64,000 bases of DNA from Desulfobacterales bacterium. Its GTDB lineage: Bacteria > Desulfobacterota > Syntrophobacteria > B119-G9. The position numbers and the translations under genes are program-made. A model generated the notes under the pieces. That model searched no databases, had not been told where the DNA came from, and saw only the letters and a program-made list of their open reading frames with translations. The DNA lies in NCBI GenBank assembly GCA_026983715.1, contig JALSTM010000042.1, positions 14,594-78,593 of the forward strand, written 5' to 3'. Shown piece after piece: positions 37,564-56,406 of the stretch; the first letter of the stretch is position 1, and every line of letters begins with the position of its first letter.

Positions 37564-39303
37564 ATGCGCCCCATAAGGATCGCCCTTGCACAACTAAACA
37601 TGGTGCTGGCGAACTTTGAGACAAACAGGGAAAAGATACTAAGTGCAATCAAGGAGGCAAGCGAGAAGGATGCAGATATCATAGCCTTCCCGGAACTTGC
37701 CATCTGTGGATATCCCCCCGAAGACCTTCTTTTGCAGTTGGAATTCTCTGAGAAGTCCATGAGGACTCTTCGGGAAATAGCTGAACAATCATCCGATCTT
37801 CCCATCATCATACTGCTGGGATACCCGGAACGAAAAGACGACACTTATAATAGTTGTGCATTAATCTTCAAAGGAGAAATCTACCATTCTTACCAGAAGA
37901 TATTTCTCCCGAATTACGGGGTCTTCGACGAAAAACGATACTTTTCGCCTGGTTCTCTTATCCCGGTGTACGAAACAGAGGATTACAAGTTTGGTGTTGG
38001 CATCTGCGAAGATATCTGGCAACCAGAGGGCCCGATTATCGTACAGGCTTTTGCCGGCGATTGTGAACTTGTGATAAACATAAACGCTTCACCTTATCAC
38101 AGGGGGAAACGCGAGTACAGGGAAAAAATGGTCGCAACGCGCGCAGCGGACAACTGCTTGCCCGTGGCATTTTTAAACCTCGTGGGAGGCCAGGATGAGC
38201 TTGTCTTCGACGGGCAATCTTTTGTATGTAGCCCCGAAGGAGAGATACTTGCAAGAGCGGGAGCCTTTTCAGAAGAAATCCTGTACGTTGACCTTGACCT
38301 TGATGAAGTAATGCGATGCAGGCTACAGGACCCAAGGCGTAGGGATTTCAAGTATCGTCGTCTGGAGAATTGTTACAATAACGTACACACGGTCAGGATT
38401 CCGGCCAGGTTGAGGAAGAAAGAATCAGCGATTGACTCCAGGCTTGTCTCTCCCCTTGAAGACGAAAACGAGGTTTGGGAAGCCCTTGTTTGCGGAGTTC
38501 GCGATTACGTGGAAAAAAACGGGTTTAAATCGGTAGTCATTGGATTATCCGGTGGAATCGATTCTGCGCTGGTGGCCACTATTGCTACCGATGCCCTTGG
38601 ACCAGACAGGGTACACACCGTGTTTCTGCCGTCCCGATTTACTTCTGATGAGAGCTACCGGGATGCGAAGAAGCTTGCAGAAAACCTAGGAGTTCACTTC
38701 ACTGTTATAGAAATTGAAAGGCTTTTTCATGCTTACCTGGAAGAACTTAAACCTCATTTTGCCGGGAAACCCTTTGATGTAACTGAAGAAAACCTTCAGG
38801 CCCGGATTCGGGGTAACATTCTCATGGCACTTTCGAACAAGTTCGGTCACCTTGTTCTTTCCACCGGAAACAAGAGCGAAATGAGCGTGGGGTATGCAAC
38901 TCTCTACGGGGACATGGTGGGTGGCTTTGCCGTTTTAAAGGATGTACCCAAGACCCTAGTGTGGGCACTAGCAAGATGGAGAAACAGGAAAGCATCCCGG
39001 GAGTTAATTCCTAACGAGATTATTACTCGTCCTCCCACGGCTGAACTTCGCGAAAATCAGAAAGATACAGATACGCTACCACCGTATGAAATTCTGGATC
39101 AGATTTTATCCCTTTACATAGAAAAGGAGGAATCGGTAGAGGAAGTGGCCGCAAGGACCGGGTTCGACAGGGAACTGGTGGCGAAAGTTGCCCGAATGGT
39201 GGACAGGGCGGAATATAAAAGACGTCAGGCTCCACCCGGAATCAAAATCACTCATAGAGCATTCGGAAAAGAACGAAGAATGCCAATCACTAGAGGCCAG
39301 TGA
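37564..39303 (+). CDS. nadE: glutamine-dependent NAD+ synthetase
   Basis: 579 aa. An N-terminal CN-hydrolase (nitrilase) domain (IALAQLNMVLANFETN…AFPELAICGY) is followed by a C-terminal NAD synthetase domain with the PP-loop VVIGLSGGIDSALV. Confidence 0.93.
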   Translation: MRPIRIALAQLNMVLANFETNREKILSAIKEASEKDADIIAFPELAICGYPPEDLLLQLEFSEKSMRTLREIAEQSSDLPIIILLGYPERKDDTYNSCALIFKGEIYHSYQKIFLPNYGVFDEKRYFSPGSLIPVYETEDYKFGVGICEDIWQPEGPIIVQAFAGDCELVININASPYHRGKREYREKMVATRAADNCLPVAFLNLVGGQDELVFDGQSFVCSPEGEILARAGAFSEEILYVDLDLDEVMRCRLQDPRRRDFKYRRLENCYNNVHTVRIPARLRKKESAIDSRLVSPLEDENEVWEALVCGVRDYVEKNGFKSVVIGLSGGIDSALVATIATDALGPDRVHTVFLPSRFTSDESYRDAKKLAENLGVHFTVIEIERLFHAYLEELKPHFAGKPFDVTEENLQARIRGNILMALSNKFGHLVLSTGNKSEMSVGYATLYGDMVGGFAVLKDVPKTLVWALARWRNRKASRELIPNEIITRPPTAELRENQKDTDTLPPYEILDQILSLYIEKEESVEEVAARTGFDRELVAKVARMVDRAEYKRRQAPPGIKITHRAFGKERRMPITRGQ

Positions 39304-42093: not shown

Positions 42094-43104
42094 TTAGCCG
42101 TAGTCCCAGAAAAGTTTCAAGCGAATCTTCTTAAATTCCTTGGTACTAAAAAGCACCCTGTAATCTTTTAGAGATGGCAGGCTTGTCAGACGCGCCGCAA
42201 TTTTCAAGCATTCATCCCTAGTCCTGCCATGCACCATGGCGTATAAGTTATATGGCCAGTCGGGATGGGCTGGCCTATGATAACAGTGCGTCACTTCGGG
42301 TTGTCGAGCAAGGTATTCACCAAGTGAGTCGAGTTCCTCTTTGTCACAGTGCCACACGATCATTCCATTGGCCGTAAATCCGGCCCGTCGATGGTCAAGT
42401 ACTGCAGCAAAACGTCGGATTATCCCCTTCTTATCCATGGATATTAGCCATTGCAGCAAAAAATCTTCCGTAACACCCAAATTGTTTGCCCACACGGAAA
42501 ATGGTCTCGGATCAAGCGGTAAATCTTCCTGAACACAGCGAACGATTCGTATGTTTTCTTCCGTGGGCTCAAATTTACCTCTGGCATCTATCCTGGGATA
42601 TTCATCTTCGTCCTCGTCAAGGTCGCTTACCTCACCAATAACATCAAGAACCATTGCCAACTTATACTTTTTTACAGCCGGAAGAATAATGGTCGGATGT
42701 GAACCGGCCTTTTTTCGAAGCTTCTCCACAACACCTTCAAGAGATTCGTAAGGTGGAACAGCTATCGTGAACCAGAGGTTGTATGAGCCAGGTCTCAGGT
42801 AATTGTGGCTGACCCCGGGATATTCGTTAATTACCTTCGCAACTTCCTCCACATCGCTCGAAGGAACCTTCATGGCCACTAGGCTAGTCTTGTAACCAAG
42901 GGCAGACGTGTTAAAAATGGCACTAATTTGCCGGATTATGTGATTTCGCTTTAGTCCATCTATATGGTTAATTATTTCAGCTTCAGATACACCAATGATA
43001 TCGCCTAGTTTCTTGTAAGGACGAACTTCAAGAGGAAACCTGCGCTGCACCAGGTCAAGCACCCTCTTCTGCTCATCGGTAAATGAAATTTCTTCTCTAC
43101 TCAT
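42094..43104 (-). CDS. fused siroheme decarboxylase AhbA/AhbB (NirD/NirL-like), alternative heme or heme d1 pathway
   Basis: 336 aa. Two Lrp/AsnC-like half-proteins are fused: an N-terminal HTH (LDLVQRRFPLEVRPYKKLGDIIGVSEAEII) with a RAM-like domain, repeated at IVRCVQEDLPLDPRPFSVWANNLGVTEDFLLQWL. Confidence 0.7.
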   Translation of the reverse strand: MSREEISFTDEQKRVLDLVQRRFPLEVRPYKKLGDIIGVSEAEIINHIDGLKRNHIIRQISAIFNTSALGYKTSLVAMKVPSSDVEEVAKVINEYPGVSHNYLRPGSYNLWFTIAVPPYESLEGVVEKLRKKAGSHPTIILPAVKKYKLAMVLDVIGEVSDLDEDEDEYPRIDARGKFEPTEENIRIVRCVQEDLPLDPRPFSVWANNLGVTEDFLLQWLISMDKKGIIRRFAAVLDHRRAGFTANGMIVWHCDKEELDSLGEYLARQPEVTHCYHRPAHPDWPYNLYAMVHGRTRDECLKIAARLTSLPSLKDYRVLFSTKEFKKIRLKLFWDYG

Positions 43105-43210
43105 GAGTGATAAACAATTTTTCTTTTTTGTTTTTATTCAATATGTATTTATAGTATTTAGCTCAACAAGTTGCAAGCAGGAAGAATTTAGCTTTGAGAG
43201 CCCTAGGGAA

Positions 43211-43414
43211 ATGAAGTTTAGAGAAAAGAGGAAAGAGCATCTATGCTGCTGTTGCGGGAAGGAAGTAACGTTTTGCTGGACGTGTCCGTGTGGTTTTAGG
43301 ATTTGTTATCAATGCATGAACGAAATCATGTGGGGAATGACCTGTAACAGGGTCATGTGGCAGTGTCCGGATTGTGGCGCCATCCGGCCCTTTTACCAAG
43401 ATACTGATTATTAA
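43211..43414 (+). CDS. small 12-cysteine zinc-ribbon-like protein (hypothetical)
   Basis: 67 aa from the ATG at 43211 (MKFREKRKEHLCCCCGKEVTFCWTCPCGFRICYQCMNEIMWGMTCNRVMWQCPDCGAIRPFYQDTDY), with an AGGGAA ribosome-binding site upstream. It is followed 4 nt later by the next gene. Confidence 0.5.
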   Translation: MKFREKRKEHLCCCCGKEVTFCWTCPCGFRICYQCMNEIMWGMTCNRVMWQCPDCGAIRPFYQDTDY

Positions 43415-43418
43415 TACC

Positions 43419-44714
43419 ATGCAAAGAAAAATAGCCATACTTTGGGACGAATCGTTTCTGTGGGGATTGATAGCTTACCTGGCCTTCAAATCGGCTCATA
43501 TCCCTTTTGAACTCATCAGTACCGAAGATGTTTTGAACGGAACCCTTGAAAATTTTGATATTCTCATGGTTCCCGGCGGATGGGCAACCCAAAAAGGAAG
43601 AAAGCTGGGAAAGACCGGGAAAGAAGAAATAAGAGAATTTATTAAATGCGGTGGCGGTTTCCTAGGGTTCTGCGGGGGAGCAGGGTTAGCCCTTGATGTT
43701 CCAGACGGGCTTGCCCTGCTCCCCGTGAGGAGAAAAAAAGCCGAGAGGAGACTCATCAACTTCAGTGGCGGTGTCTTTTTGCAGCCAACACAGCCTTATC
43801 ACCATATGTGGAAAGGAATAAACCCTCCATACGAGTTCTTTGTTTGGTGGCCTTCCCAATTTGAAATAGAAGACACCACCGCCGTGAGGATTCTAGCCAG
43901 CTATCAGAGCGCCGGAACTGATTTCAGGGTCTCGGACCTGAACGTGGAAGACATAGAGTGCTGGGGAGGGAAATGGGAAAGATGGGAAAGTATTTATGGA
44001 ATAACCCTTAATCCCAAGGTTCTCTGGGGGGAACCTTCCATAATCGAGGGAAGTTTCGGAAAAGGGAAGGTGATATTATCATATGTTCATCTAGATACTC
44101 CTATGCATATGAGGTCGCAGTTAGCTCTCAAGAACACCTGTGAATACCTGTTTGATTCTTGTCCGGAGAAAATAAGAGACACAAAATCCAGTTTATCATG
44201 TTATGAAATGGGGGAAATTGTCCTCTTGGACGCAGAAATCATAGAATCGGCTTCCAGGATACGGAAGGCGGTTAACGGGTTCTACGAGTTTGGCTACAGG
44301 AATCTTCTCTGGAATTGGAGGAATCCCTGGCTGCTCCATTGGAAACGGGGACTAAGGGGGCTCGAATACACTACCCTGCTAGTAATGTCAAAGGAACTGA
44401 CTTCCCGAATATTGAAAGGGTCGAAGCAAAAAGTTACTGTACGTTGTAATGGGTGGAAGAAAAAATTTCTGCGTCTTGAGAGAGAAATTAAGTCTTTCTT
44501 TGAACAAGCAACAAACCTACTAGGTAAAGAACGGTTTGCCCTGGATAATTCCTTGGGACCTTTAGAAAAATTATCAAGTAACAGCTCCGGGATAAATAGA
44601 CTACGAAGTGAACTTTTTGGGCAGAAAATGTCCTTTGGGGGAAGGTATAGGAAATTAATAAAACTACTTGATGACCTCCTGTTTGCCATTCTTAGATGTG
44701 AAGATCATGGTTGA
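43419..44714 (+). CDS. BPL_N-domain (class I glutamine-amidotransferase-like) protein, function unknown
   Basis: 431 aa from MQRKIAILWDE. The N-terminal about 110 aa match the biotin-protein-ligase N-terminal (BPL_N) type fold: FDILMVPGGWATQ…EIREFIKCGGGFLGFCGGAGLA. The rest is uncharacterised. Its stop overlaps the next ATG by 8 nt. Confidence 0.6.
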   Translation: MQRKIAILWDESFLWGLIAYLAFKSAHIPFELISTEDVLNGTLENFDILMVPGGWATQKGRKLGKTGKEEIREFIKCGGGFLGFCGGAGLALDVPDGLALLPVRRKKAERRLINFSGGVFLQPTQPYHHMWKGINPPYEFFVWWPSQFEIEDTTAVRILASYQSAGTDFRVSDLNVEDIECWGGKWERWESIYGITLNPKVLWGEPSIIEGSFGKGKVILSYVHLDTPMHMRSQLALKNTCEYLFDSCPEKIRDTKSSLSCYEMGEIVLLDAEIIESASRIRKAVNGFYEFGYRNLLWNWRNPWLLHWKRGLRGLEYTTLLVMSKELTSRILKGSKQKVTVRCNGWKKKFLRLEREIKSFFEQATNLLGKERFALDNSLGPLEKLSSNSSGINRLRSELFGQKMSFGGRYRKLIKLLDDLLFAILRCEDHG

Positions 44715-46227
44715 CTCTTGCTTGCTTAACGGTGTTTCCAGGCTACTCGCCATCAAGGCAATTGAGATAAGTAAACAGAATGTGCCTTGGGACGAGTACT
44801 GCAAGATAATGTCTAGTTTTCTTGAAGAGCTTCGGCTTGAAAACGCTCCCAGCCAAAAGCCAGAAAAAGTAACACCGTCTCCCATAAAAAATGCCCGGAT
44901 GAAAAATATTTCTACTACGTTTCATGGTGATGACTTTTCAATACTTACTTGTACCTCTTTGGGACTTCCGCAGTGTTACGGAGGGTTTCCGCCATTATTT
45001 TTCGTTAGAGGTAACAGGGAAATCGTTGGTTATCCCACGGCCACGGTTCTTAATTCCAGGAAGCCACGCCTCGTTGATCCGAAGGACGAGTGGGTAAATG
45101 GAACCGTGTACCTATCAAGAAAATTTATAAAAGACAAATACTGCCTTGTGTCGAGTACCGGAACGAGCGGCTACGATATTCTTAGCTACATCGCATGGAA
45201 AGAAAAGTGCCCCTTGCTCATTATTCTGGATCAACCACTTCCTTTTTGGAGTTCGAATTCACTTTCTCAGGAATTTACCAAGAAATACGGTTGGCTAATG
45301 GAGCAAGAAAACATCCTTTTTCTTTCCCCATTCCCATCTAGCAAAATTCTACCACGTAAAAGAAGAATGGTAATAAGAGACAGGCTCGTTGTTTCCGTAG
45401 CACGAACCGTGGCGATTGCAGCAATTACCGATTCCGGCAATATGTACAAACTGGCGTCGGAAATATTTGAACACGAAAAAGTCGTCTGGGTTTTTAGACC
45501 ACGAAGTTTTAATCGATTGACCAGTGGGAATAAAAAAATCCTGAATAAATTCCAAGTAAGCCGGCCTGTCACACCTGAGAAGATACCCCCCAACAGATAT
45601 TCTGGCTCAGAGACTGATCATAAAAAATATGCGGATCCAGATAGAATAATTAGCAGATTTCCGGAAAACTACCTCACACATTTTACTAGACGATGCCCTG
45701 GTCCATGGCCAGGACAGAGTTACCCTGCTTATCTTGAGTCCCTCACAGCGGGGTTACCAGAAGCACATCACACGGCTTTTGAAACTCTGAGACACATTCT
45801 AAGGGAGGGCACGGTGAGGGCGGGTACCAAGATAATCAGGGGTAACGTACCCGTAGTTTCTTTGACCGAATGTACCCCGGACGAAATTATGAAGATTACC
45901 AAGTGGAATAGGGCGCTCATCAGGTGGACTTTTGAACCTTACGGAATAGCCTTTCCAAAAGATGCTGTCAGACAACTTGGTGCTCGGCCAGCAATATACG
46001 GTGATAACTTACGGTATTCTAAGATTCCCACCAAGGACCGTTATCTTTTTCAGCTTGACGAACCAGCCAAGCACAGGTGGAAACAAGAAAAAGAATGGCG
46101 GATAAGGGGTGATCTGCGCATCAGCTCATTTGAAACTGGCGACGTTTTAATAATCGTCAAAAAAGAAAAAGAAGCCCTGAAAATAATTAATGATTTCCCC
46201 TACAGGGTATACATCATGGGGAAATAG
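44707..46227 (+). CDS. DprA/Smf-family (SLOG Rossmann) protein with long uncharacterised C-terminal domain
   Basis: 506 aa from MVDSCLL. The DprA Rossmann core is clear: GGFPPLFFVRGNREIV…VNGTVYLSRKFIKDKYCLVSSTGTSGYDILSYIAWKEKCPLLIIL…RDRLVVSVARTVAIAAITDSGNMYKLASEIFEHEKVVWVF. A roughly 190-aa C-terminal extension (nt about 45658–46227) carries HFTRR…TLRHILREG…SLTECT…QEKEWRIRG. Confidence 0.7.
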   Translation: MVDSCLLNGVSRLLAIKAIEISKQNVPWDEYCKIMSSFLEELRLENAPSQKPEKVTPSPIKNARMKNISTTFHGDDFSILTCTSLGLPQCYGGFPPLFFVRGNREIVGYPTATVLNSRKPRLVDPKDEWVNGTVYLSRKFIKDKYCLVSSTGTSGYDILSYIAWKEKCPLLIILDQPLPFWSSNSLSQEFTKKYGWLMEQENILFLSPFPSSKILPRKRRMVIRDRLVVSVARTVAIAAITDSGNMYKLASEIFEHEKVVWVFRPRSFNRLTSGNKKILNKFQVSRPVTPEKIPPNRYSGSETDHKKYADPDRIISRFPENYLTHFTRRCPGPWPGQSYPAYLESLTAGLPEAHHTAFETLRHILREGTVRAGTKIIRGNVPVVSLTECTPDEIMKITKWNRALIRWTFEPYGIAFPKDAVRQLGARPAIYGDNLRYSKIPTKDRYLFQLDEPAKHRWKQEKEWRIRGDLRISSFETGDVLIIVKKEKEALKIINDFPYRVYIMGK

Positions 46228-46593: not shown

Positions 46594-47592
46594 ATGGATG
46601 CCAATGTCATGGAATTTAACATGATAGACGTTGGAGGAAGCCCTGTAGACGGCTATTTCTTAAACAGTGCTTCACCTCCTATCGATCAGTGTCTCTACAT
46701 GGATTTTTACAAGCTGAAAGAGCATCCCTTTTCAATCACCCCGGATCCGGATTTTCTGTACTTAAGTCAGACCCACCGGAGTGTCCTAGAAAGGGTTTTA
46801 TACGGAATTCAGGCGGGCTACGGTTTCATTCTGATTACCGGAGAAGTTGGGACAGGGAAAACTACCCTCTGTCGGTCTATCCTGAGTATATTAAAAGACC
46901 GAGTCAATACAGCATACCTGATAAACCCGTCAATATCGGGTAGGGAACTCCTCGCTTCAGTCCTGGATGACCTGGGGATCGAGTATTCACCAAACTCGAC
47001 AAAAAAAGACCTCCTTTCAAAGCTTAATAATTTCTTACTGTCTAATGAAAATCGCATAACAACCATCATTGTTGACGATGCCCAAACGCTGCCAGTGGAA
47101 ACGCTTGAAGATATCAGGCTGCTTTCAAACCTTGAAACCACGAAAAACAAGTTGTTGCAGATTGTGCTTGTCGGCCAAAACGAGCTGTTAGATATCCTCT
47201 CGCAACCGGAGTTACGTCAGTTAAACCAAAGGATCGCAATCCGGTGCAGGCTGGAACATCTCACAATAGACGAAACGGCCCGTTACATAGACAACCGCTT
47301 GAGTGTAGCAGGAAACAGGGGACAGGTCTGTTTCCAGTCAGATGCTCTTAGCACTATTCATAAAGCATCAGGTGGAATTCCCAGACTGGTTAACCTGATT
47401 TGCGATTATGCATTGCTCGCAGGCTACGTAAAGCAAAAGAACGTGATTTCAGAAAGAGAGGTCCGGCAGGCTCTAAATGAGCTAAATATACCTAAAAACC
47501 GGGTAAATAGTAAACATATTCCACTGTATATCTGGTTCTGCGTGCCGGCGCTCCTTACTATTGCAATTTTTATTCAGTACTTAATCAGGTAA
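46594..47592 (+). CDS. ExeA/GspA-like AAA ATPase
   Basis: 332 aa. The motif YKLKEHPFSITPDPDFLY is typical of the ExeA N-terminus. A Walker A box (ITGEVGTGKTTLCRS), a Walker B box (TIIVDDAQ) and a C-terminal transmembrane helix are present. Confidence 0.75.
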   Translation: MDANVMEFNMIDVGGSPVDGYFLNSASPPIDQCLYMDFYKLKEHPFSITPDPDFLYLSQTHRSVLERVLYGIQAGYGFILITGEVGTGKTTLCRSILSILKDRVNTAYLINPSISGRELLASVLDDLGIEYSPNSTKKDLLSKLNNFLLSNENRITTIIVDDAQTLPVETLEDIRLLSNLETTKNKLLQIVLVGQNELLDILSQPELRQLNQRIAIRCRLEHLTIDETARYIDNRLSVAGNRGQVCFQSDALSTIHKASGGIPRLVNLICDYALLAGYVKQKNVISEREVRQALNELNIPKNRVNSKHIPLYIWFCVPALLTIAIFIQYLIR

Positions 47593-47610
47593 AAATCTCA
47601 GGAATAAAAG

Positions 47611-48789
47611 ATGAGCCTTCTTAACGATGCTTTAAAGAAAAAAGAACAGGAAACACAGATCCCAGATGTACCTTCTCACCTTCTTGGACTGCAAGACGAA
47701 GGAAAAGTAGAGAAAACACAACCGAAAAAGCTCTTTCTTACACTCCTTGCCATACTTGTGGTTTTCTCTGCCGGCCTTTCTTACGGGATACTTAAATACA
47801 GCTCCAGCCAGATCAGGCCGAAAGTTTTATCGATAGGAAAATCAAATATAACTACCAACAAGGAAGTAACCCAGACCGCCCCCGGGAAAAATGAGGAGTC
47901 TAAAACCGGAAACTCCATCAAGACCATTACGACAGAAAAGAAGGTTTTAGCCGAAAATAGTCCTGAGAAAGGTCTGAGTAATGAACATGTGGTAGAAAAA
48001 GCAGAAGTTAAACAGCCACAGGAAGTAGGAAACACGGCAGAGAACGAAAAGTCGAGGGAAAAAGCAACAGCCACAAAAAAAGCCCAGATAGCAAAAAAAG
48101 GGCACAAGCTTGAGGTTAAGCAAACAACCCCGAAAGTTGTAACGCGGGAAAAACCCGTTTCCGTCACGACGACAAAGAAAAAGAAAGCTGTTGAGTCCTT
48201 TTTCATCACTGCTGCAAGGTACCAGAGAGATGGAAGGGTTCACGAAGCTATACGGATATACAAAAGCATCCTTAAGAGATACCCTCAGAACAGAAAAGCC
48301 AGGTTAAACCTGGGAGCAGCATACTTACAGGTCGGTCAGTACAGTGCTGCCTTAAACATCATGGAAAAGCTCTACAATCAATACCCCAATGATCCCCGGG
48401 TTCTTTTAGATTATTCAATTGTACTGGTAAAGTTCGGAAGACTGGAAGAGGCACTACAATGTATAGAACTGGCCGAAAAGAAAGGGGGACCAAGATACGA
48501 AGTACTGCTAAACAAAGGGATAGTGCTTAGGAAACTTGGGAAAATTAGCCAGGCCATCGATGCTTATCGGGAAGCCAGTTATCTGAGACCCAATGATCCA
48601 CGGCTTCAATACAATATGGCTATCGTTTACGATGCGGCAGGATCATATCGAGAAGCAACCAGATACTATAAGTCCTTCCTTGATAATCCTGAACACGACA
48701 CCAAGAAGGATGTTCCGGTCAGGCAACGACTACAACAGCTCTACGCGTACCTGAATCGTATCAAGCAGGAACAGTATACCAGGAATTGA
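47611..48789 (+). CDS. membrane-anchored TPR-repeat protein (possible GspB/ExeB-like partner)
   Basis: 392 aa. A transmembrane helix (LFLTLLAILVVFSAGLSYGI) and a low-complexity lysine/threonine-rich linker precede C-terminal TPR repeats. It sits between the ExeA-like gene and gspE. Confidence 0.55.
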   Translation: MSLLNDALKKKEQETQIPDVPSHLLGLQDEGKVEKTQPKKLFLTLLAILVVFSAGLSYGILKYSSSQIRPKVLSIGKSNITTNKEVTQTAPGKNEESKTGNSIKTITTEKKVLAENSPEKGLSNEHVVEKAEVKQPQEVGNTAENEKSREKATATKKAQIAKKGHKLEVKQTTPKVVTREKPVSVTTTKKKKAVESFFITAARYQRDGRVHEAIRIYKSILKRYPQNRKARLNLGAAYLQVGQYSAALNIMEKLYNQYPNDPRVLLDYSIVLVKFGRLEEALQCIELAEKKGGPRYEVLLNKGIVLRKLGKISQAIDAYREASYLRPNDPRLQYNMAIVYDAAGSYREATRYYKSFLDNPEHDTKKDVPVRQRLQQLYAYLNRIKQEQYTRN

Positions 48790-48794
48790 GATAG

Positions 48795-50465
48795 ATGAAC
48801 GGGAAAACTAAAAGTAAAAAAAGTCGCATCGGGGATATACTGGTCGAACTAGGGTACCTGTCACAGGACCAGTTGCAAAAGGCCTTGCAGGAATCGAAGC
48901 GAACAGGCGTAATGCTTGGTGAAGTCCTTACGAGGCTCGGATGGATTACCGAGGAACAGCTCAACACTGCACTTGGGATACAGTCTGGTGCGCAGTTGCT
49001 TGACACGAAAAGAGTAAGCGTTGATAGTGGTGTGTTGAAAATGGTTCCTCACGAGTTTGCCAGGGAACACGAACTTTTACCGTTCGGTCTTCAGGAAAAT
49101 TCTCTTCAGGTAGCGCTTTCCAACCCCTTTGACGTTGTAGCCAGGGACAAGCTAAAATCACTGACCGGGAAAAAAATTATACCATACATCGCCCCACGGG
49201 AATGGATCACAGGTTCTATTGAGTACTACTACAAAACTGCAGCACACATAGACGAAGAAATTGAAGAAATAGTAAGAAGGGATCTGGCGGGAGATTCCGA
49301 TGCCACAGCCGAAGGCAACATAACGCGATTGGTTGACCTTATCATAGCCAAGGGTCTGAGCCTGGGTGCAAGCGACATACACATAGACCCGGATGAACAA
49401 CTGGTCAGAATATACTTTCGGATGGACGGGGTATTACATCAGAAGTATCTCTTGCCGAAGAAATTCCACTCCGGCCTGGTTACTAGGATTAAGGTCATGA
49501 GTGGCATCCCCCTTGGGGATGCTCACGTACCTCATGACGGTCGAGTTCAGTACGATGCCAAGGTACGAAAGATAGACATCAGGGTTTCCACATTTCCATC
49601 ACACCTTGGTGAGATGGTCGTAATGCGTTTATTAATCAAAGCCGAGGCCGTAGGAAGTTTCGAACGATTAGGGATGACTAAAAAAACAATAGACCAGGTA
49701 ACCTCGGCAATATACAGGCCTCACGGCCTGGTGCTAATCACCGGACCCACCGGGTCCGGAAAAACAACTACCGTTTACACTGTTTTGCTAAAAATTAACC
49801 GATCTGAAATCAATATCATGGCCATTGAGGATCCGATAGAATACGTGATTCCGACTGTAAGGCAGAGTGCCGTTAATCCTAAGGCTGGATTTACCTTTGC
49901 CAACGCACTTCGTGCTGCTCTAAGGCAGGATCCTGATGTGATCATGGTGGGAGAAGTCAGGGACAAGGAAACGGCGGAGTTGGCTTTAAGGGCTTCCATT
50001 ACCGGTCACCTCGTTATCTCCACCCTACATGCCAATGAAGCCGCCGGTGCGGTCCCAAGACTTCTTGACATGGGTGTTCTACCCACAGTTCTGGCATCAA
50101 GCCTGGTGCTTGTCGTGGCACAAAGGTTAGTAAGACGTCTTTGCCCCGATTGCATAGAACTTTATTCACCATCGGCAGAAGAGAAAGAGGTTTTCCTGTC
50201 CAATGGTCTCGAAGCTCCTTCAGAACTTGCAAGAACAACCGGTTGTGACCTGTGTCACAATACGGGTTTTAAGGGTCGAATAGGTATATTTGAGATAATG
50301 ATGGTCAGCAAGGAAATAGAAGAACTGATCATAGGAAACGCTTCACGTAGCAAAATAGAAGAAGTGGCAGTCAGCCAGGGAATGGAAAAAATGTTCGTGG
50401 ACGGGTTAAGAAAGGTGGCCCAAAAACTTACTTCCTTAAGCGAAATCCGGAGGGTAGCAGTATAA
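48795..50465 (+). CDS. GspE/PilB-family secretion ATPase with N-terminal MshEN-type domain
   Basis: 556 aa. A Walker A box (LITGPTGSGKTT), Asp and His boxes, and a tetracysteine motif (CPDC…CDLC) are present. The N-terminus carries two tandem 24-aa motifs, RIGDILVELGYLSQDQLQKALQES and MLGEVLTRLGWITEEQLNTALGIQ. Confidence 0.9.
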   Translation: MNGKTKSKKSRIGDILVELGYLSQDQLQKALQESKRTGVMLGEVLTRLGWITEEQLNTALGIQSGAQLLDTKRVSVDSGVLKMVPHEFAREHELLPFGLQENSLQVALSNPFDVVARDKLKSLTGKKIIPYIAPREWITGSIEYYYKTAAHIDEEIEEIVRRDLAGDSDATAEGNITRLVDLIIAKGLSLGASDIHIDPDEQLVRIYFRMDGVLHQKYLLPKKFHSGLVTRIKVMSGIPLGDAHVPHDGRVQYDAKVRKIDIRVSTFPSHLGEMVVMRLLIKAEAVGSFERLGMTKKTIDQVTSAIYRPHGLVLITGPTGSGKTTTVYTVLLKINRSEINIMAIEDPIEYVIPTVRQSAVNPKAGFTFANALRAALRQDPDVIMVGEVRDKETAELALRASITGHLVISTLHANEAAGAVPRLLDMGVLPTVLASSLVLVVAQRLVRRLCPDCIELYSPSAEEKEVFLSNGLEAPSELARTTGCDLCHNTGFKGRIGIFEIMMVSKEIEELIIGNASRSKIEEVAVSQGMEKMFVDGLRKVAQKLTSLSEIRRVAV

Positions 50466-51685
50466 TGCCTCTCTTCAGATACACTGCGCTGGACGGTCAT
50501 GGAAAGATTGTAAAGGGCACAATGGTTGCTCTCACAGAGTCTGATGCTGAAAAGCGACTTGGTGAGCGAGATCTCACGCTAATCCAGGCAAAAAAACTCT
50601 CAGAACGATTCTCTGCGCTGTCGCATATTTTCAAGAGACAAGTTCGCGATAGAGACCTTATCGAGTTCTACCAGAGACTTTCCGAGTCGCTGGAAGTAGG
50701 TTTACCGCTACTTTCTACCCTGGAAGAAAACATAAAGCTTATTGGATCGAAGAGACTTGCGAGAAGCGTTGAAAGGGTAAAGCTTGACGTAGAAAATGGG
50801 CTTACACTTTCACAGGCCATGAGCCAGCAATCTGACGTGTTCGATACCCTTCAGATTGGGATCGTGGCAATGGGTGAACAGTCCGGTACTCTTCCGGAAG
50901 CTCTCAAGCATCTGGCTGATTTCCTTGAATGGAAGTACCAACAGAAATCCTTGTTAAAACGAGCATCCATATACCCTGCGTTTATTTTTGTGACGGTGCT
51001 GGTTGTGGTAGCCATTTGGGTTGGTTACGTTTTGCCACAAGTTGGTGGGTTCCTGGAAAGTATGCAAATTGAGCTCCCTACTATAACCATGGCTGTAATT
51101 ACCATGAGCAGATGGATCCAAGGACACTGGATACATATCATTGCAGGACTTACCGGGATAATCATTGGTACCGTGATTTTCAAAAAATCAAAGTGGGGTG
51201 GGGTCAAATATGACATGTTAATGTTAAAATTGCCCGTGGTGGGAAAAGTAATACTTAACTCATCCGTCAGTAGAATAGGGCACTATTTCTCTGTCATGCT
51301 AGAAGCAGGAATGAACCTAGTCACAATATTTGAATTGATGACTGATGGCATTATAGGAAATAAGTACATTGAAAAACAGCTCGAAAGGGTTTTTGATCAG
51401 GTGAAACAGGGCAAACAGTTTTTTGAAGCATTTAAGAAGGAGAAGACCTTCCCAGATCTCTTTCTCGGTGCAATCAAAACAGGGGAACAGGCTGGTAAAC
51501 TGGCCGAGACTTTCAAAAGACTCGGAGTTTACTACGACAAGGAAGTCAAAAGATCTGTGAAATTTCTTGTTGCAGCCTTTGAACCTGCCATCATTATTTT
51601 TCTCGGCCTTTTTTTCGGCATCATTATCCTTGCAATACTGTCCCCCCTTTACGACGTAATTGGCCAGATAAGCAAGGCTTACTAA
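50465..51685 (+). CDS. GspF/PilC-family inner-membrane platform protein
   Basis: 406 aa. Two T2SF domains with three transmembrane segments are present. The start codon overlaps the gspE stop. Confidence 0.9.
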   Translation: MPLFRYTALDGHGKIVKGTMVALTESDAEKRLGERDLTLIQAKKLSERFSALSHIFKRQVRDRDLIEFYQRLSESLEVGLPLLSTLEENIKLIGSKRLARSVERVKLDVENGLTLSQAMSQQSDVFDTLQIGIVAMGEQSGTLPEALKHLADFLEWKYQQKSLLKRASIYPAFIFVTVLVVVAIWVGYVLPQVGGFLESMQIELPTITMAVITMSRWIQGHWIHIIAGLTGIIIGTVIFKKSKWGGVKYDMLMLKLPVVGKVILNSSVSRIGHYFSVMLEAGMNLVTIFELMTDGIIGNKYIEKQLERVFDQVKQGKQFFEAFKKEKTFPDLFLGAIKTGEQAGKLAETFKRLGVYYDKEVKRSVKFLVAAFEPAIIIFLGLFFGIIILAILSPLYDVIGQISKAY

Positions 51686-54912: not shown

Positions 54913-56406
54913 TCAGTTAACGTACTGTCTCTTTATTATTGGGGTCAATAAAATGACAAGTTCAGTATTTCTCCATTCTTTGTCAAGATTTTGAAAGAGG
55001 TATCCTAGCCAAGGTATATCTCCAAGCACGGGTAGTTTTTGCCGAATGTTTCTCATCGTTTTTCGAATCAGGCCCGCAAGTATCACGGTATCTCCTTCGT
55101 GAACCTTTACCACGGTACCAAGTTCTCTCAGGTCAAAAATGGGATTCTCTATCCGCTGCACCCGTGCCCCCACGGTTGGTATTTCAACGTCTACGACGTC
55201 TTGGAGGTCGGTTATTGTGGGGACCACGTGAAGAATTATATCGCCATTTTCAGCAATGTGAGGGGTAACACCCAGCTGCACGCCCACGATGGCCCTTTTA
55301 ATGTCAACGTCATATATCAAGTTCCCCGTTTCATCCTGAATATCTACACCAGAAATGTCCCCGTAAGGGTACTGGTGACCCACCGTAAGTATTGCAGATT
55401 GCCCGTTTAGCACGGATAAGTGAGGGCTCGATATAACGGAGACTTCCCCCTGTGTCTGGAGATAGTCAATGAGAACGTTTAGGTTAAAATCACCGGTATC
55501 CAGGTTGCTTAAAACAGCCGTTCCACCCCTTTCTAGTCCCTGAGAAAGCGACTGAGTTAAAGTCAACTGCCCGTGACTTGCCAGATCTGAAATTGCCGTC
55601 CAATCGATGCCATATTGGAACTTATCGCCAAGCCTTACCTCGAGGATTTTTGCCTCTATTAAAACTTGTCGGTTCACAGATTGCTTAAGTTGATCCAAAA
55701 ATTTGACCATGGATCTAATGTGTGAAGGAGTGTCAATCATGTAGACAGTACCCGCCAAAGAATTAACCATTATCTTGCCTTCCGCAGATTTCAATCTTTC
55801 CAGAGATTCCTGGATCCTTTGCCAGATGTCGGAAGTTTCATCATTGCGCTTGGAATCTATCTTGAACTCGCTAGATATCCCCATATCTTCCTGGTTACCA
55901 CCAAGTATGTCACCGCCGACCTTGGTCGTAGCTTTTCTTATTCCGCTCAAGTAATCGAGGTGATATACTTTCTCGGCAAATCTTTTCACCTCCACGAAGT
56001 TGCCACTAAGATTGTAGCTATAATCGGCCCCCCTTACAACTACAGCATCAAGGGCTTCTCGCAACGTCACATTGTCAACGTGGATAAAAATCGGCTGCTG
56101 CACGTCAATTCCAGGTTCTATGGATAAATTCAAACTGGTGTTTTTTACAATTGCGTATAAAACATCAATTAGTGGGGCGTTTTCAAAGTGCAGGGAAAAT
56201 AGTTTTCCTGCCTCCGGGCTTTCCAGGAAAACAGGGCTACTTTCTTCTTCTAGCTTGGGTGGGCCAGGTACCGATATCTTCTTATAACTTTCTAAGATTT
56301 CTCCCGGGCTTTTAGTTATCGGCCTTGGTTGGTTTTCAGTGGTAGTACACGAAGTTACCAGAAAAAAGCCAAAGCATACCAATGCAGCTAATATTCGAAA
56401 ACGCAT
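54913..56406 (-). CDS. pilQ: secretin (PilQ/GspD family)
   Basis: 497 aa. An N-terminal lipoprotein or signal sequence (LVTSCTT) and N-domains precede the secretin C-domain (VILAGLI…LPVLGDIPWLGYLF…ELVILLTP). Confidence 0.85.
   Translation of the reverse strand: MRFRILAALVCFGFFLVTSCTTTENQPRPITKSPGEILESYKKISVPGPPKLEEESSPVFLESPEAGKLFSLHFENAPLIDVLYAIVKNTSLNLSIEPGIDVQQPIFIHVDNVTLREALDAVVVRGADYSYNLSGNFVEVKRFAEKVYHLDYLSGIRKATTKVGGDILGGNQEDMGISSEFKIDSKRNDETSDIWQRIQESLERLKSAEGKIMVNSLAGTVYMIDTPSHIRSMVKFLDQLKQSVNRQVLIEAKILEVRLGDKFQYGIDWTAISDLASHGQLTLTQSLSQGLERGGTAVLSNLDTGDFNLNVLIDYLQTQGEVSVISSPHLSVLNGQSAILTVGHQYPYGDISGVDIQDETGNLIYDVDIKRAIVGVQLGVTPHIAENGDIILHVVPTITDLQDVVDVEIPTVGARVQRIENPIFDLRELGTVVKVHEGDTVILAGLIRKTMRNIRQKLPVLGDIPWLGYLFQNLDKEWRNTELVILLTPIIKRQYVN

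Follow-up and report, generated by a model that had tools for sequence, protein, structure and literature searches.

A DprA-like protein of a Desulfobacterales bacterium with a C-terminal domain predicted to adopt an ADP-ribosyltransferase fold

Within a 64,000-nucleotide stretch of the genome of a Desulfobacterales bacterium (the whole stretch that was analysed, termed here the window; assembly GCA_026983715.1, contig JALSTM010000042.1, positions 14,594 to 78,593), an open reading frame (ORF) at 44668..46227 (+) encodes a protein of 519 amino acids, counted from the listed TTG start, as are the residue numbers below. Its N-terminal half is a module of the DprA clade, and its C-terminal domain, judging by a predicted structure, very likely has the fold of the ADP-ribosyltransferase (ART) superfamily. 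On this model we regard the domain as founding a new family within the superfamily. Its sequence points to a distant kinship with AbiGi, and its predicted structure comes nearest to DarT and Tpt1. An ART fold prediction for AbiGi-like proteins and the DprA-like modules of ShosA and PsyrA are already known; the domain family and the DprA-ART architecture, which lack a Pfam model, appear to be new. A search of the literature found no description of such a fusion or family, with a mention in the 2015 ART review by Aravind being possible.

Predicted fold and conserved motifs of the C-terminal domain

The C-terminal region (45658..46227) comprises residues 331-519 and the stop codon. The gene and its parts, all on the + strand, are as follows:

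44668..46227, +: whole gene, a DprA-like and ART-like fusion (from the ORF list; an identical 519-amino-acid protein is in the databases)
44728..45570, +: DprA-clade module, residues ~21-301, with an N-terminal helical part and a Rossmann (SLOG-type) domain
45571..45660, +: interdomain linker, residues ~302-331, poorly conserved, with no conserved columns and a predicted local distance difference test score (pLDDT) <50 at 312-330 in the N-terminal model
45661..46215, +: predicted ART-fold domain of the AbiGi-like clade, residues 332-516
45679..45690, +: motif I, H338-F-T340-R341, in which the NAD+-binding motif takes the H-x-T form; H-F-T ends the strand 335-340, R341 lies just after it, and H338 and R341 are invariant
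45694..45717, +: C-P-G-P-W-P-G-Q, residues 343-350, which in alignments opens an insert of ~25 residues between β1 and helix α1
45784..45801, +: helix α1 motif T-L-x-R-I-L (373-378), then E-G; conserved, the counterpart of N-L-x-x-I-L-x-x-G in DarT
45838..45843, +: R391-G392 in the loop before β2; the arginine is conserved in the main family and in a sister family described below
45859..45867, +: motif II, S398-L-T400, conserved, at the end of predicted strand β2 (396-400)
45922..45945, +: R419-W-T-F-E423-P-Y425-G426, in the loop into strand β3; invariant at R, E and P and almost invariant at W, Y and G
46087..46101, +: motif III, E474-K-E476-W-R478; E476, the putative catalytic glutamate, is the first residue of predicted strand β5 (476-480)

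An AlphaFold2 (AF2) model of residues 320-519 reached a pLDDT of 90 and a predicted template modelling score (pTM) of 0.87, and displayed the split β-sheet core of the ART fold. The structural matches of the domain that came before the first plainly unrelated protein, at rank 35, belonged to the ART superfamily, judged by their names, and the best of them were the nucleic-acid ARTs DarT and Tpt1, not protein toxins. Further matches comprised SopF, the DUF952 protein CC0527, mouse Tpt1, OspC3, an Rhs ART toxin, Scabin and CARDS, as well as pertussis-like and heat-labile toxins, pierisin, RES, C3, PARPs and Arr. The original prediction, made from the sequence alone, had pointed to motifs reminiscent of ART folds in this region, and had named the lack of any ART-fold match, or a confident match to another fold, as findings that would speak against it. 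At the level of the fold, the likeness was borne out by the structural matches together with the placement of the motifs, and the matches came out on its side of that question. Foldseek against the PDB, one of the searches it had proposed, gave nothing significant for the C-terminal domain (best E=0.86), though weak ART matches (Arr, pertussis S1, RES, ParT and MbcT) were scattered through the list. Sequence and profile searches of the PDB with the domain returned noise only.

ARTs are described by a tripartite signature, [R/H]x[D/T] - [S/Y][T/x][S/x] - [Q/E]x[Q/E/D] (PMC12522546). The conserved H-x-T, S-x-T and E-x-E residues of the domain fit these motifs I, II and III, also in their position on the strands: in the model, H338-F-T340 ends β1, S398-L-T400 ends β2, and E474 lies two residues before E476, which opens β5. 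All of the strings quoted in the original prediction could be located (VVWVFRP at 271-277, THFTR at 337-341, TLRHIL at 373-378, VVSLT at 396-400 and RWKQEKEWRIRGD at 470-482), and its putative catalytic site, QEKEW, turned out to be the near-invariant E474-x-E476-W-R at the opening of the strand 476-480. The order of the motifs (R/H, then S-T-S, then E-x-E), on which that prediction had leaned, proved unspecific when taken by itself: the loose pattern [HR]x[TD]...Sx[ST]...[EQ]xE is found in 9 of the 56 window ORFs of at least 150 amino acids, and it arises in 4.6% of shuffled versions of the C-terminal domain. We take the pattern to be real because its positions are strongly conserved across homologues, and not because of their order.

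In an alignment of 91 homologues, H338, R341 and L374 are invariant, and T340, E474, E476, W477 and R478 are conserved at 90% or above (the last four are invariant in a set of 32 sequences). Among 303 proteins of the family, 286 carry H-x-[TV]-R, 284 carry [SCP]-x-[TS] at β2, and 295 carry E-x-E-W-R. The conserved blocks read L-x-H-[YF]-T-R, C-P-G-P-W-P-G-Q, T-L-x-R-I-L-x-E and R-G-x-x-x-V-V-S-x-T, followed by R-W-T-F-E-P-Y-G, G-A-x-P-x-I-Y, F-Q and W-x-x-E-x-E-W-R; in these alignments, the motifs singled out at the outset are the most conserved positions of the family. The CPGPWPGQ block is nearly invariant among those DprA-linked members that were examined; the stand-alone sister family lacks it. 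The insert that it opens may serve as an interdomain contact or as a lid over the active site. R391 is a candidate counterpart of the catalytic arginine that DarT2, an enzyme with an H-Y-E triad, carries in its NAD+-binding loop (PMC11543638).

As to the family, the claim of a DarT/KptA-type fold stood in part: the predicted structure is closest to DarT and Tpt1, but by sequence the domain belongs to neither. The DarT profile (Pfam/PADLOC, E up to 1-10) matched neither the window domain nor any of 32 homologues, and Pfam gave no match to Tpt1/KptA (PF01885) for the window protein or the same homologues. AbiGi (PF10899) is the only family reached by sequence, weakly and transitively. It was matched by 3 of the 32 homologues in Pfam (best E=3.5e-4) and by 2 of the 32 in PADLOC, without reaching its gathering score of 22.4 bits (16.9 bits for homologue P0112) and with no match for the window domain; within the sister family, it was matched by 23 of 27 members (best E=8.8e-6), and two sister proteins carry a precomputed PF10899 match. 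The sister and main families are themselves joined by hhalign at 99.8% (E=6e-30). These AbiGi matches support a distant relationship rather than membership. In a survey of Legionella ARTs, AbiGi was counted as an ART-like family, and AbiGi-like families were described whose motif II varies between C and S and whose motif III is ExE (PMC12522546).

The two-domain protein, its family and its genomic setting

The N-terminal half was matched by the Pfam model DNA_processg_A below threshold (E=4.8e-4), and a family profile of this half finds DprA structures and ShosA in the PDB. Because of these matches we assign it to the DprA clade; by this assignment it is not a ligand-sensing SLOG domain of the ThsA type. 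The Rossmann fold of DprA and the DprA profile (PF02481) were both recovered in it. Its conserved motifs are N129-S-R-K-P-R, S163-x-G-x-x-x-Y169, R237-D238 and G257-N258, and N-S-R-K-P aligns with G-T-R-R-P of H. pylori DprA. In the complex of that protein with single-stranded DNA (ssDNA), the [G/N]-S/T-R-[K/R]-P motif contacts the DNA backbone, and it is this alignment that suggests DNA binding by the module. Both halves of the protein are basic, with a pI of 9.6 each and net charges of +15 and +9.

The start codon is probably ATG 44707 rather than TTG 44668, which would give a protein of 506 amino acids. This ATG overlaps the stop of the upstream gene by 8 nucleotides (arrangement ATGgtTGA, within 44700-44714). 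The overlap recurs in the closest homologous locus; loci L006 and L010 show it. The overlap suggests that translation of the DprA-ART gene is coupled to that of the gene before it. The opposite strand of 44668..46227 holds no competing long ORF, Rfam families have no match in or around the gene region, and promoter, terminator and RNA-element signals in and around it did not rise above background.

The two-domain layout is shared by 113 full-length homologues. A profile of the C-terminal domain retrieved 2,736 cluster representatives (50% identity) at E<=1e-3, and 1,352 at E<=1e-30. Among the best 150 of the 2,736, for which the architecture was read, nearly all are proteins of ~500 amino acids that end in this domain; ~900 matches at E 1e-10 to 1e-3 may hold other architectures. 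On one Planctomycetota-like contig (locus L007), the two modules are two overlapping genes, of which the upstream one gives a 96% match to the DprA half (E=2.5e-9); several short 'stand-alone' proteins start, as judged by eye, with the apparent tail of a DprA module. A scan of one genome per species found the family in at least 165 GTDB species, mostly Thermodesulfobacteriota. The main carriers are Syntrophobacteraceae, Desulfomonilaceae, Desulfosoma, Desulfacinum, Desulforhabdus, Desulfarculia and Syntrophaceae, with D. infernum and D. hydrothermale (Desulfacinum) as cultured carriers and a few further carriers in Nitrospirota and Poribacteria. A screen of 2.9 million viral contigs turned up no relative, and we rejected a phage origin on that ground.

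The sister family came to light through the weakest match of the first search (P0114), in which YbeY is fused to an ART-like domain that does not have the CPGPWPGQ insert. A search with the C-terminus of this protein yielded 620 proteins; the 120 listed are mostly of ~184 amino acids, and those of the listed sister proteins that bear an organism name are all from Candidatus Binatia. In both of the loci examined (L091, 6001-6561, and L092, 6001-6552), the sister gene is the X of a phoH-ybeY-X-lnt arrangement, with 4-nucleotide overlaps on both sides, an arrangement from which the YbeY fusion in P0114 probably arose. The sister family reads C-x-F-D at motif II, where the main family has S-x-T; E-P-[YF]-G is common to the two, and E-x-E-W-R at motif III is found in the Binatia family and in relatives on a plasmid and a phage-labelled contig alike. 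Plasmids hold remote relatives only (28-30% identity), on three plasmids, along with one unverified phage-labelled contig. One of these relatives, on the Phaeobacter inhibens plasmid pP72_b (L093, 3965-5203), is a protein of 412 amino acids (hhalign 97.7%) with an extra, uncharacterised C-terminal half, and another lies on the unverified 'Salmonella phage' contig (L094); both keep H-F-x-R, V-V-C-x-T, A-R-P-[AV]-I-Y-G and W-x-H-E-R-E-W-R.

The neighbouring genes that bear on the setting of the gene in the window are the following:

43374..44714, +: BPL_N / class-I glutamine-amidotransferase-like gene, 446 amino acids, directly upstream (Pfam BPL_N E=1.4e-7), probably translationally coupled
46594-51685, +: MSHA-type type IV pilus / secretion cluster, downstream, with AAA_22 (MshM/ExeA-like), TPR, a T2SSE ATPase with MshEN domain, and T2SSF
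54913-56406, -: secretin, further on from the pilus cluster

Across 80 loci, the commonest neighbours are a RodZ-like gene (25 loci), ychF (22) and a BPL_N-like homologue, which lies upstream on the same strand (11). Neighbours vary by lineage; those that bear an annotation are housekeeping genes (ychF, obg, rpmA/rplU and dapB). The BPL_N-like gene is a lineage-restricted neighbour, and a functional link to the DprA-ART gene is possible; in Syntrophobacteraceae, ychF sits between the two. A conserved partner gene such as an antitoxin, a macrodomain or a NADAR gene was considered and rejected, as none emerged when the neighbours of the 80 loci were clustered, a comparison of crude ORF calls by BLAST which a small or fast-evolving partner could escape. 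Likewise, the Pfam families of the annotated loci include no DarG macrodomain, NADAR or AbiGii-type gene. A link to competence through the MSHA-type pilus genes was also set aside, their adjacency being kept in only 3 of the 80 loci.

In a Nitrospirota metagenome-assembled genome (MAG; JBDRHR01, locus L005, 1924-7165), there come after the DprA-ART gene first a PNP_UDP_1 nucleoside phosphorylase gene and then a gene for an 804-amino-acid protein that joins a RecQ helicase to a phosphoribosyltransferase (PsyrT-like), with toxin-antitoxin modules farther on; the same MAG holds a second DprA-ART copy (L025). In the window, a glutamine-dependent NAD+ synthetase (CN_hydrolase and NAD_synthase) is encoded ~5 kb upstream (37564-39303, +), and a NirDL/AhbAB-like siroheme decarboxylase, an enzyme typical of sulfate reducers, at 42094-43104 (-); both are probably coincidental neighbours. 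Between the NirDL-like and BPL_N-like genes lies a cysteine-rich ORF of 103 amino acids (43103-43414, +; CCCCGKEVTFCWTCPCGF...CPDCG), which may encode a small zinc-ribbon protein or may be spurious.

Proposed activity and competing explanations

We tentatively propose, at somewhat under even odds, that the protein is a transferase that depends on NAD+ and takes as its substrate the single-stranded nucleic acid bound by its DprA module. The DprA module would bind the strand, most likely ssDNA and possibly RNA, while NAD+ would be bound in the cleft formed by H338-x-T340 of β1 and S398-x-T400 of β2. E476 would act as the catalytic residue, helped by E474 and the conserved R341 and R391, and ADP-ribose would be moved onto the bound strand, either onto a base, as by DarT, or onto a terminal phosphate, as by enzymes of the Tpt1/KptA type. 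Catalytic activity of the ART module with NAD+ is probable, whereas a nucleic acid as its substrate is a guess a little less good than the toss of a coin. As the loci examined showed an ordinary chromosomal setting and nothing of the antitoxin type beside the gene, we expect its part in nucleic-acid metabolism to be regulated, gated and non-lethal, unlike that of a classical toxin.

A number of points weigh against this proposal. Its functional statements are drawn from a predicted structure, and H338, S398 and E476 are assigned to the lining of the NAD+ site by their strand positions only. Pfam, NCBIfam and PADLOC have no match for the C-terminal domain, leaving the window protein without a family there. 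Comparison by hhalign of the 32-sequence set (A2), the sister set (A4) and a combined alignment with three DarT sequences from the PDB yielded probabilities of 0.25%, 1%, 9% and 10%, none of them significant. The likeness first seen to the YHxTH…NLxSIL motif of DarT has a trace in this comparison, in which LTHFT...DNLvaIL..G of the sister family pairs with IYHIT..DNLkgIL..G of DarT, but at a probability of 9-10% only; since only these β1/α1 motifs pair sensibly, we discarded the pairing as evidence of homology. AbiGi, in turn, is annotated as 'antitoxin', and in a 2026 review it is uncharacterised and has no significant structural match (PMC13064643). The place of the sister family by ybeY hints at RNA rather than DNA. 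Lastly, a DNA-modifying ART with no reversing enzyme nearby would be expected to cause harm, and the apparently stable chromosomal setting therefore speaks for a different or tightly gated activity.

The E-x-E motif raises a further objection, as it is typical of arginine-specific protein ARTs (the R-S-E-type toxins), and the target could accordingly be a protein. The protein would in this case be an active ART whose DprA-like module localises it to ssDNA or binds RecA, SSB or a ribosome- or RNA-associated factor, and the conserved E-x-E would specify arginine or a similar acceptor. The ART fold and motifs are just as this explanation would have them, and canonical DprA is a RecA loader, which makes a protein partner plausible; moreover, 'protein' is given as the likely substrate for most ExE families (PMC12522546). 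Yet the structures most similar to the domain are those of DarT and Tpt1, which act on nucleic acid and are not protein toxins, motif I reads H-x-T and not R, both modules are strongly basic, and no conserved neighbour gene hints at a protein target; we regard this explanation as unlikely. We are equally doubtful that the domain transfers nothing, being instead a module that binds a ligand or nucleic acid, whether as a pseudo-ART or as a sensor of NAD+ or ADP-ribose, and that regulates or aids the DprA-like module, or else an NAD+ hydrolase. The 'antitoxin' label of AbiGi, which is not that of an enzyme, would suit such a role, and an apparently stable chromosomal setting without a reversing enzyme is easily explained if nothing toxic is made; SLOG domains elsewhere (ThsA) are reported to bind ligands derived from ADP-ribose. 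However, the three catalytic-motif positions are near-invariant over ~300 sequences and the sister family, which is the pattern of an active site and not of a degenerate one.

It is more improbable still that the gene encodes a fused toxin-antitoxin or anti-phage protein, in which an AbiGi/DarT-like ART would be restrained in cis by a ShosA/PsyrA-like module and freed upon infection. Several observations do lean towards defence: by sequence, the C-terminal half comes nearest to the abortive-infection protein AbiGi, the N-terminal half resembles ShosA and PsyrA, remote relatives occur on a conjugative plasmid and a phage-labelled contig, and the gene copy of one Nitrospirota MAG is two genes away from the PsyrT-like RecQ-phosphoribosyltransferase gene and near toxin-antitoxin modules. 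These are offset by the presence of the family in so many species (at least 165) of few related phyla, by annotated neighbours that are housekeeping rather than defence genes (ychF, obg, rplU/rpmA, dapB), by the lack of relatives in the viral contigs and of a conserved partner in the 80 loci, and by the position of the sister family inside a phoH-ybeY-lnt operon.

Returning to a transferase acting on nucleic acid, a more far-reaching and rather unlikely version of it is that of a housekeeping nucleic-acid ADP-ribosyltransferase with no antitoxin, in which the DprA module of the Thermodesulfobacteriota protein would feed ssDNA or RNA to the DarT/Tpt1-like domain in the course of normal DNA or RNA metabolism, with the Binatia sister enzyme working in a phoH-ybeY-lnt RNA-processing operon. 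To our knowledge, physiological, non-toxin ADP-ribosylation of nucleic acids has so far not been described in bacteria, and we know of bacterial DNA or RNA ADP-ribosylation only from toxins (DarT, the pierisin/Scabin type and RhsP2) and the enigmatic KptA. What sets the present family apart is the combination of an ART fold closest to DarT and Tpt1 with a module of the ssDNA-binding type, its large size, its ordinary chromosomal setting and the fact that no adjoining reversing enzyme was seen. If active, these proteins would point to non-lethal, physiological ADP-ribosylation of nucleic acid, or of a DNA-associated protein, in anaerobic sulfate reducers and syntrophs, and would offer a first mechanistic foothold for the uncharacterised AbiGi-like clade, with the sister family by ybeY as a second, independent entry point. 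If inactive, they would still constitute an undescribed domain family and an architecture missing from Pfam.

Comparison with known systems

With DarT (DUF4433, PF14487), the toxin of DarTG that ADP-ribosylates thymidine or guanosine in ssDNA, the C-terminal domain shares an order of elements: H-x-T in β1, an (N/T)L-x-x-IL-x-x-G helix, a loop with a conserved arginine and a glutamate that starts β5. Compared with the triad of DarT2, the histidine and the glutamate are present, the position of the tyrosine reads S/C-x-T, and motif III is E-x-E. An action on single-stranded nucleic acid would be a further likeness, for which the present protein is a candidate by its predicted structure. Unlike DarT, it carries the 25-residue CPGPWPGQ insert after β1 and is fused to a DprA module, and its gene lies in an ordinary chromosomal setting rather than on a mobile element, with no DarG macrodomain or NADAR gene seen in the annotated loci.

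For AbiGi, a component of the lactococcal AbiG abortive-infection system, the S/C variation in motif II and the ExE of motif III are described in AbiGi-like families, but AbiGi has arginine or lysine in motif I in place of the histidine found here. It also pairs with an AbiGii-type gene, whereas none was seen beside the DprA-ART gene or the Binatia sister gene in the annotated loci.

Tpt1/KptA (PF01885) resembles the domain in its H-x-T motif I and x-x-S/T motif II, and is an NAD+-dependent ART of the non-toxic, housekeeping type that acts on nucleic-acid phosphates. It is two-lobed, with an Arg-His-Arg-Arg catalytic tetrad that lies partly in the N-terminal lobe. This lobe is a winged helix, whereas a DprA-like fold precedes the ART domain here. 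The conserved ExE is a further difference, as Tpt1 is generally known not to have one; TRPT1 has been described as lacking the canonical glutamate (PMC12522546).

The N-terminal half resembles DprA/Smf, ShosA and PsyrA, in that the [G/N]-S/T-R-[K/R]-P and R-[N/D]-R motifs are conserved, while the G-x-G-I-D of DprA is replaced by S-x-G-T-x-x-Y-D and the Pfam score falls below the gathering cut-off. Many DprA proteins carry a winged-helix domain at the C-terminus; the protein described here differs from DprA in that an ART domain stands in this place.

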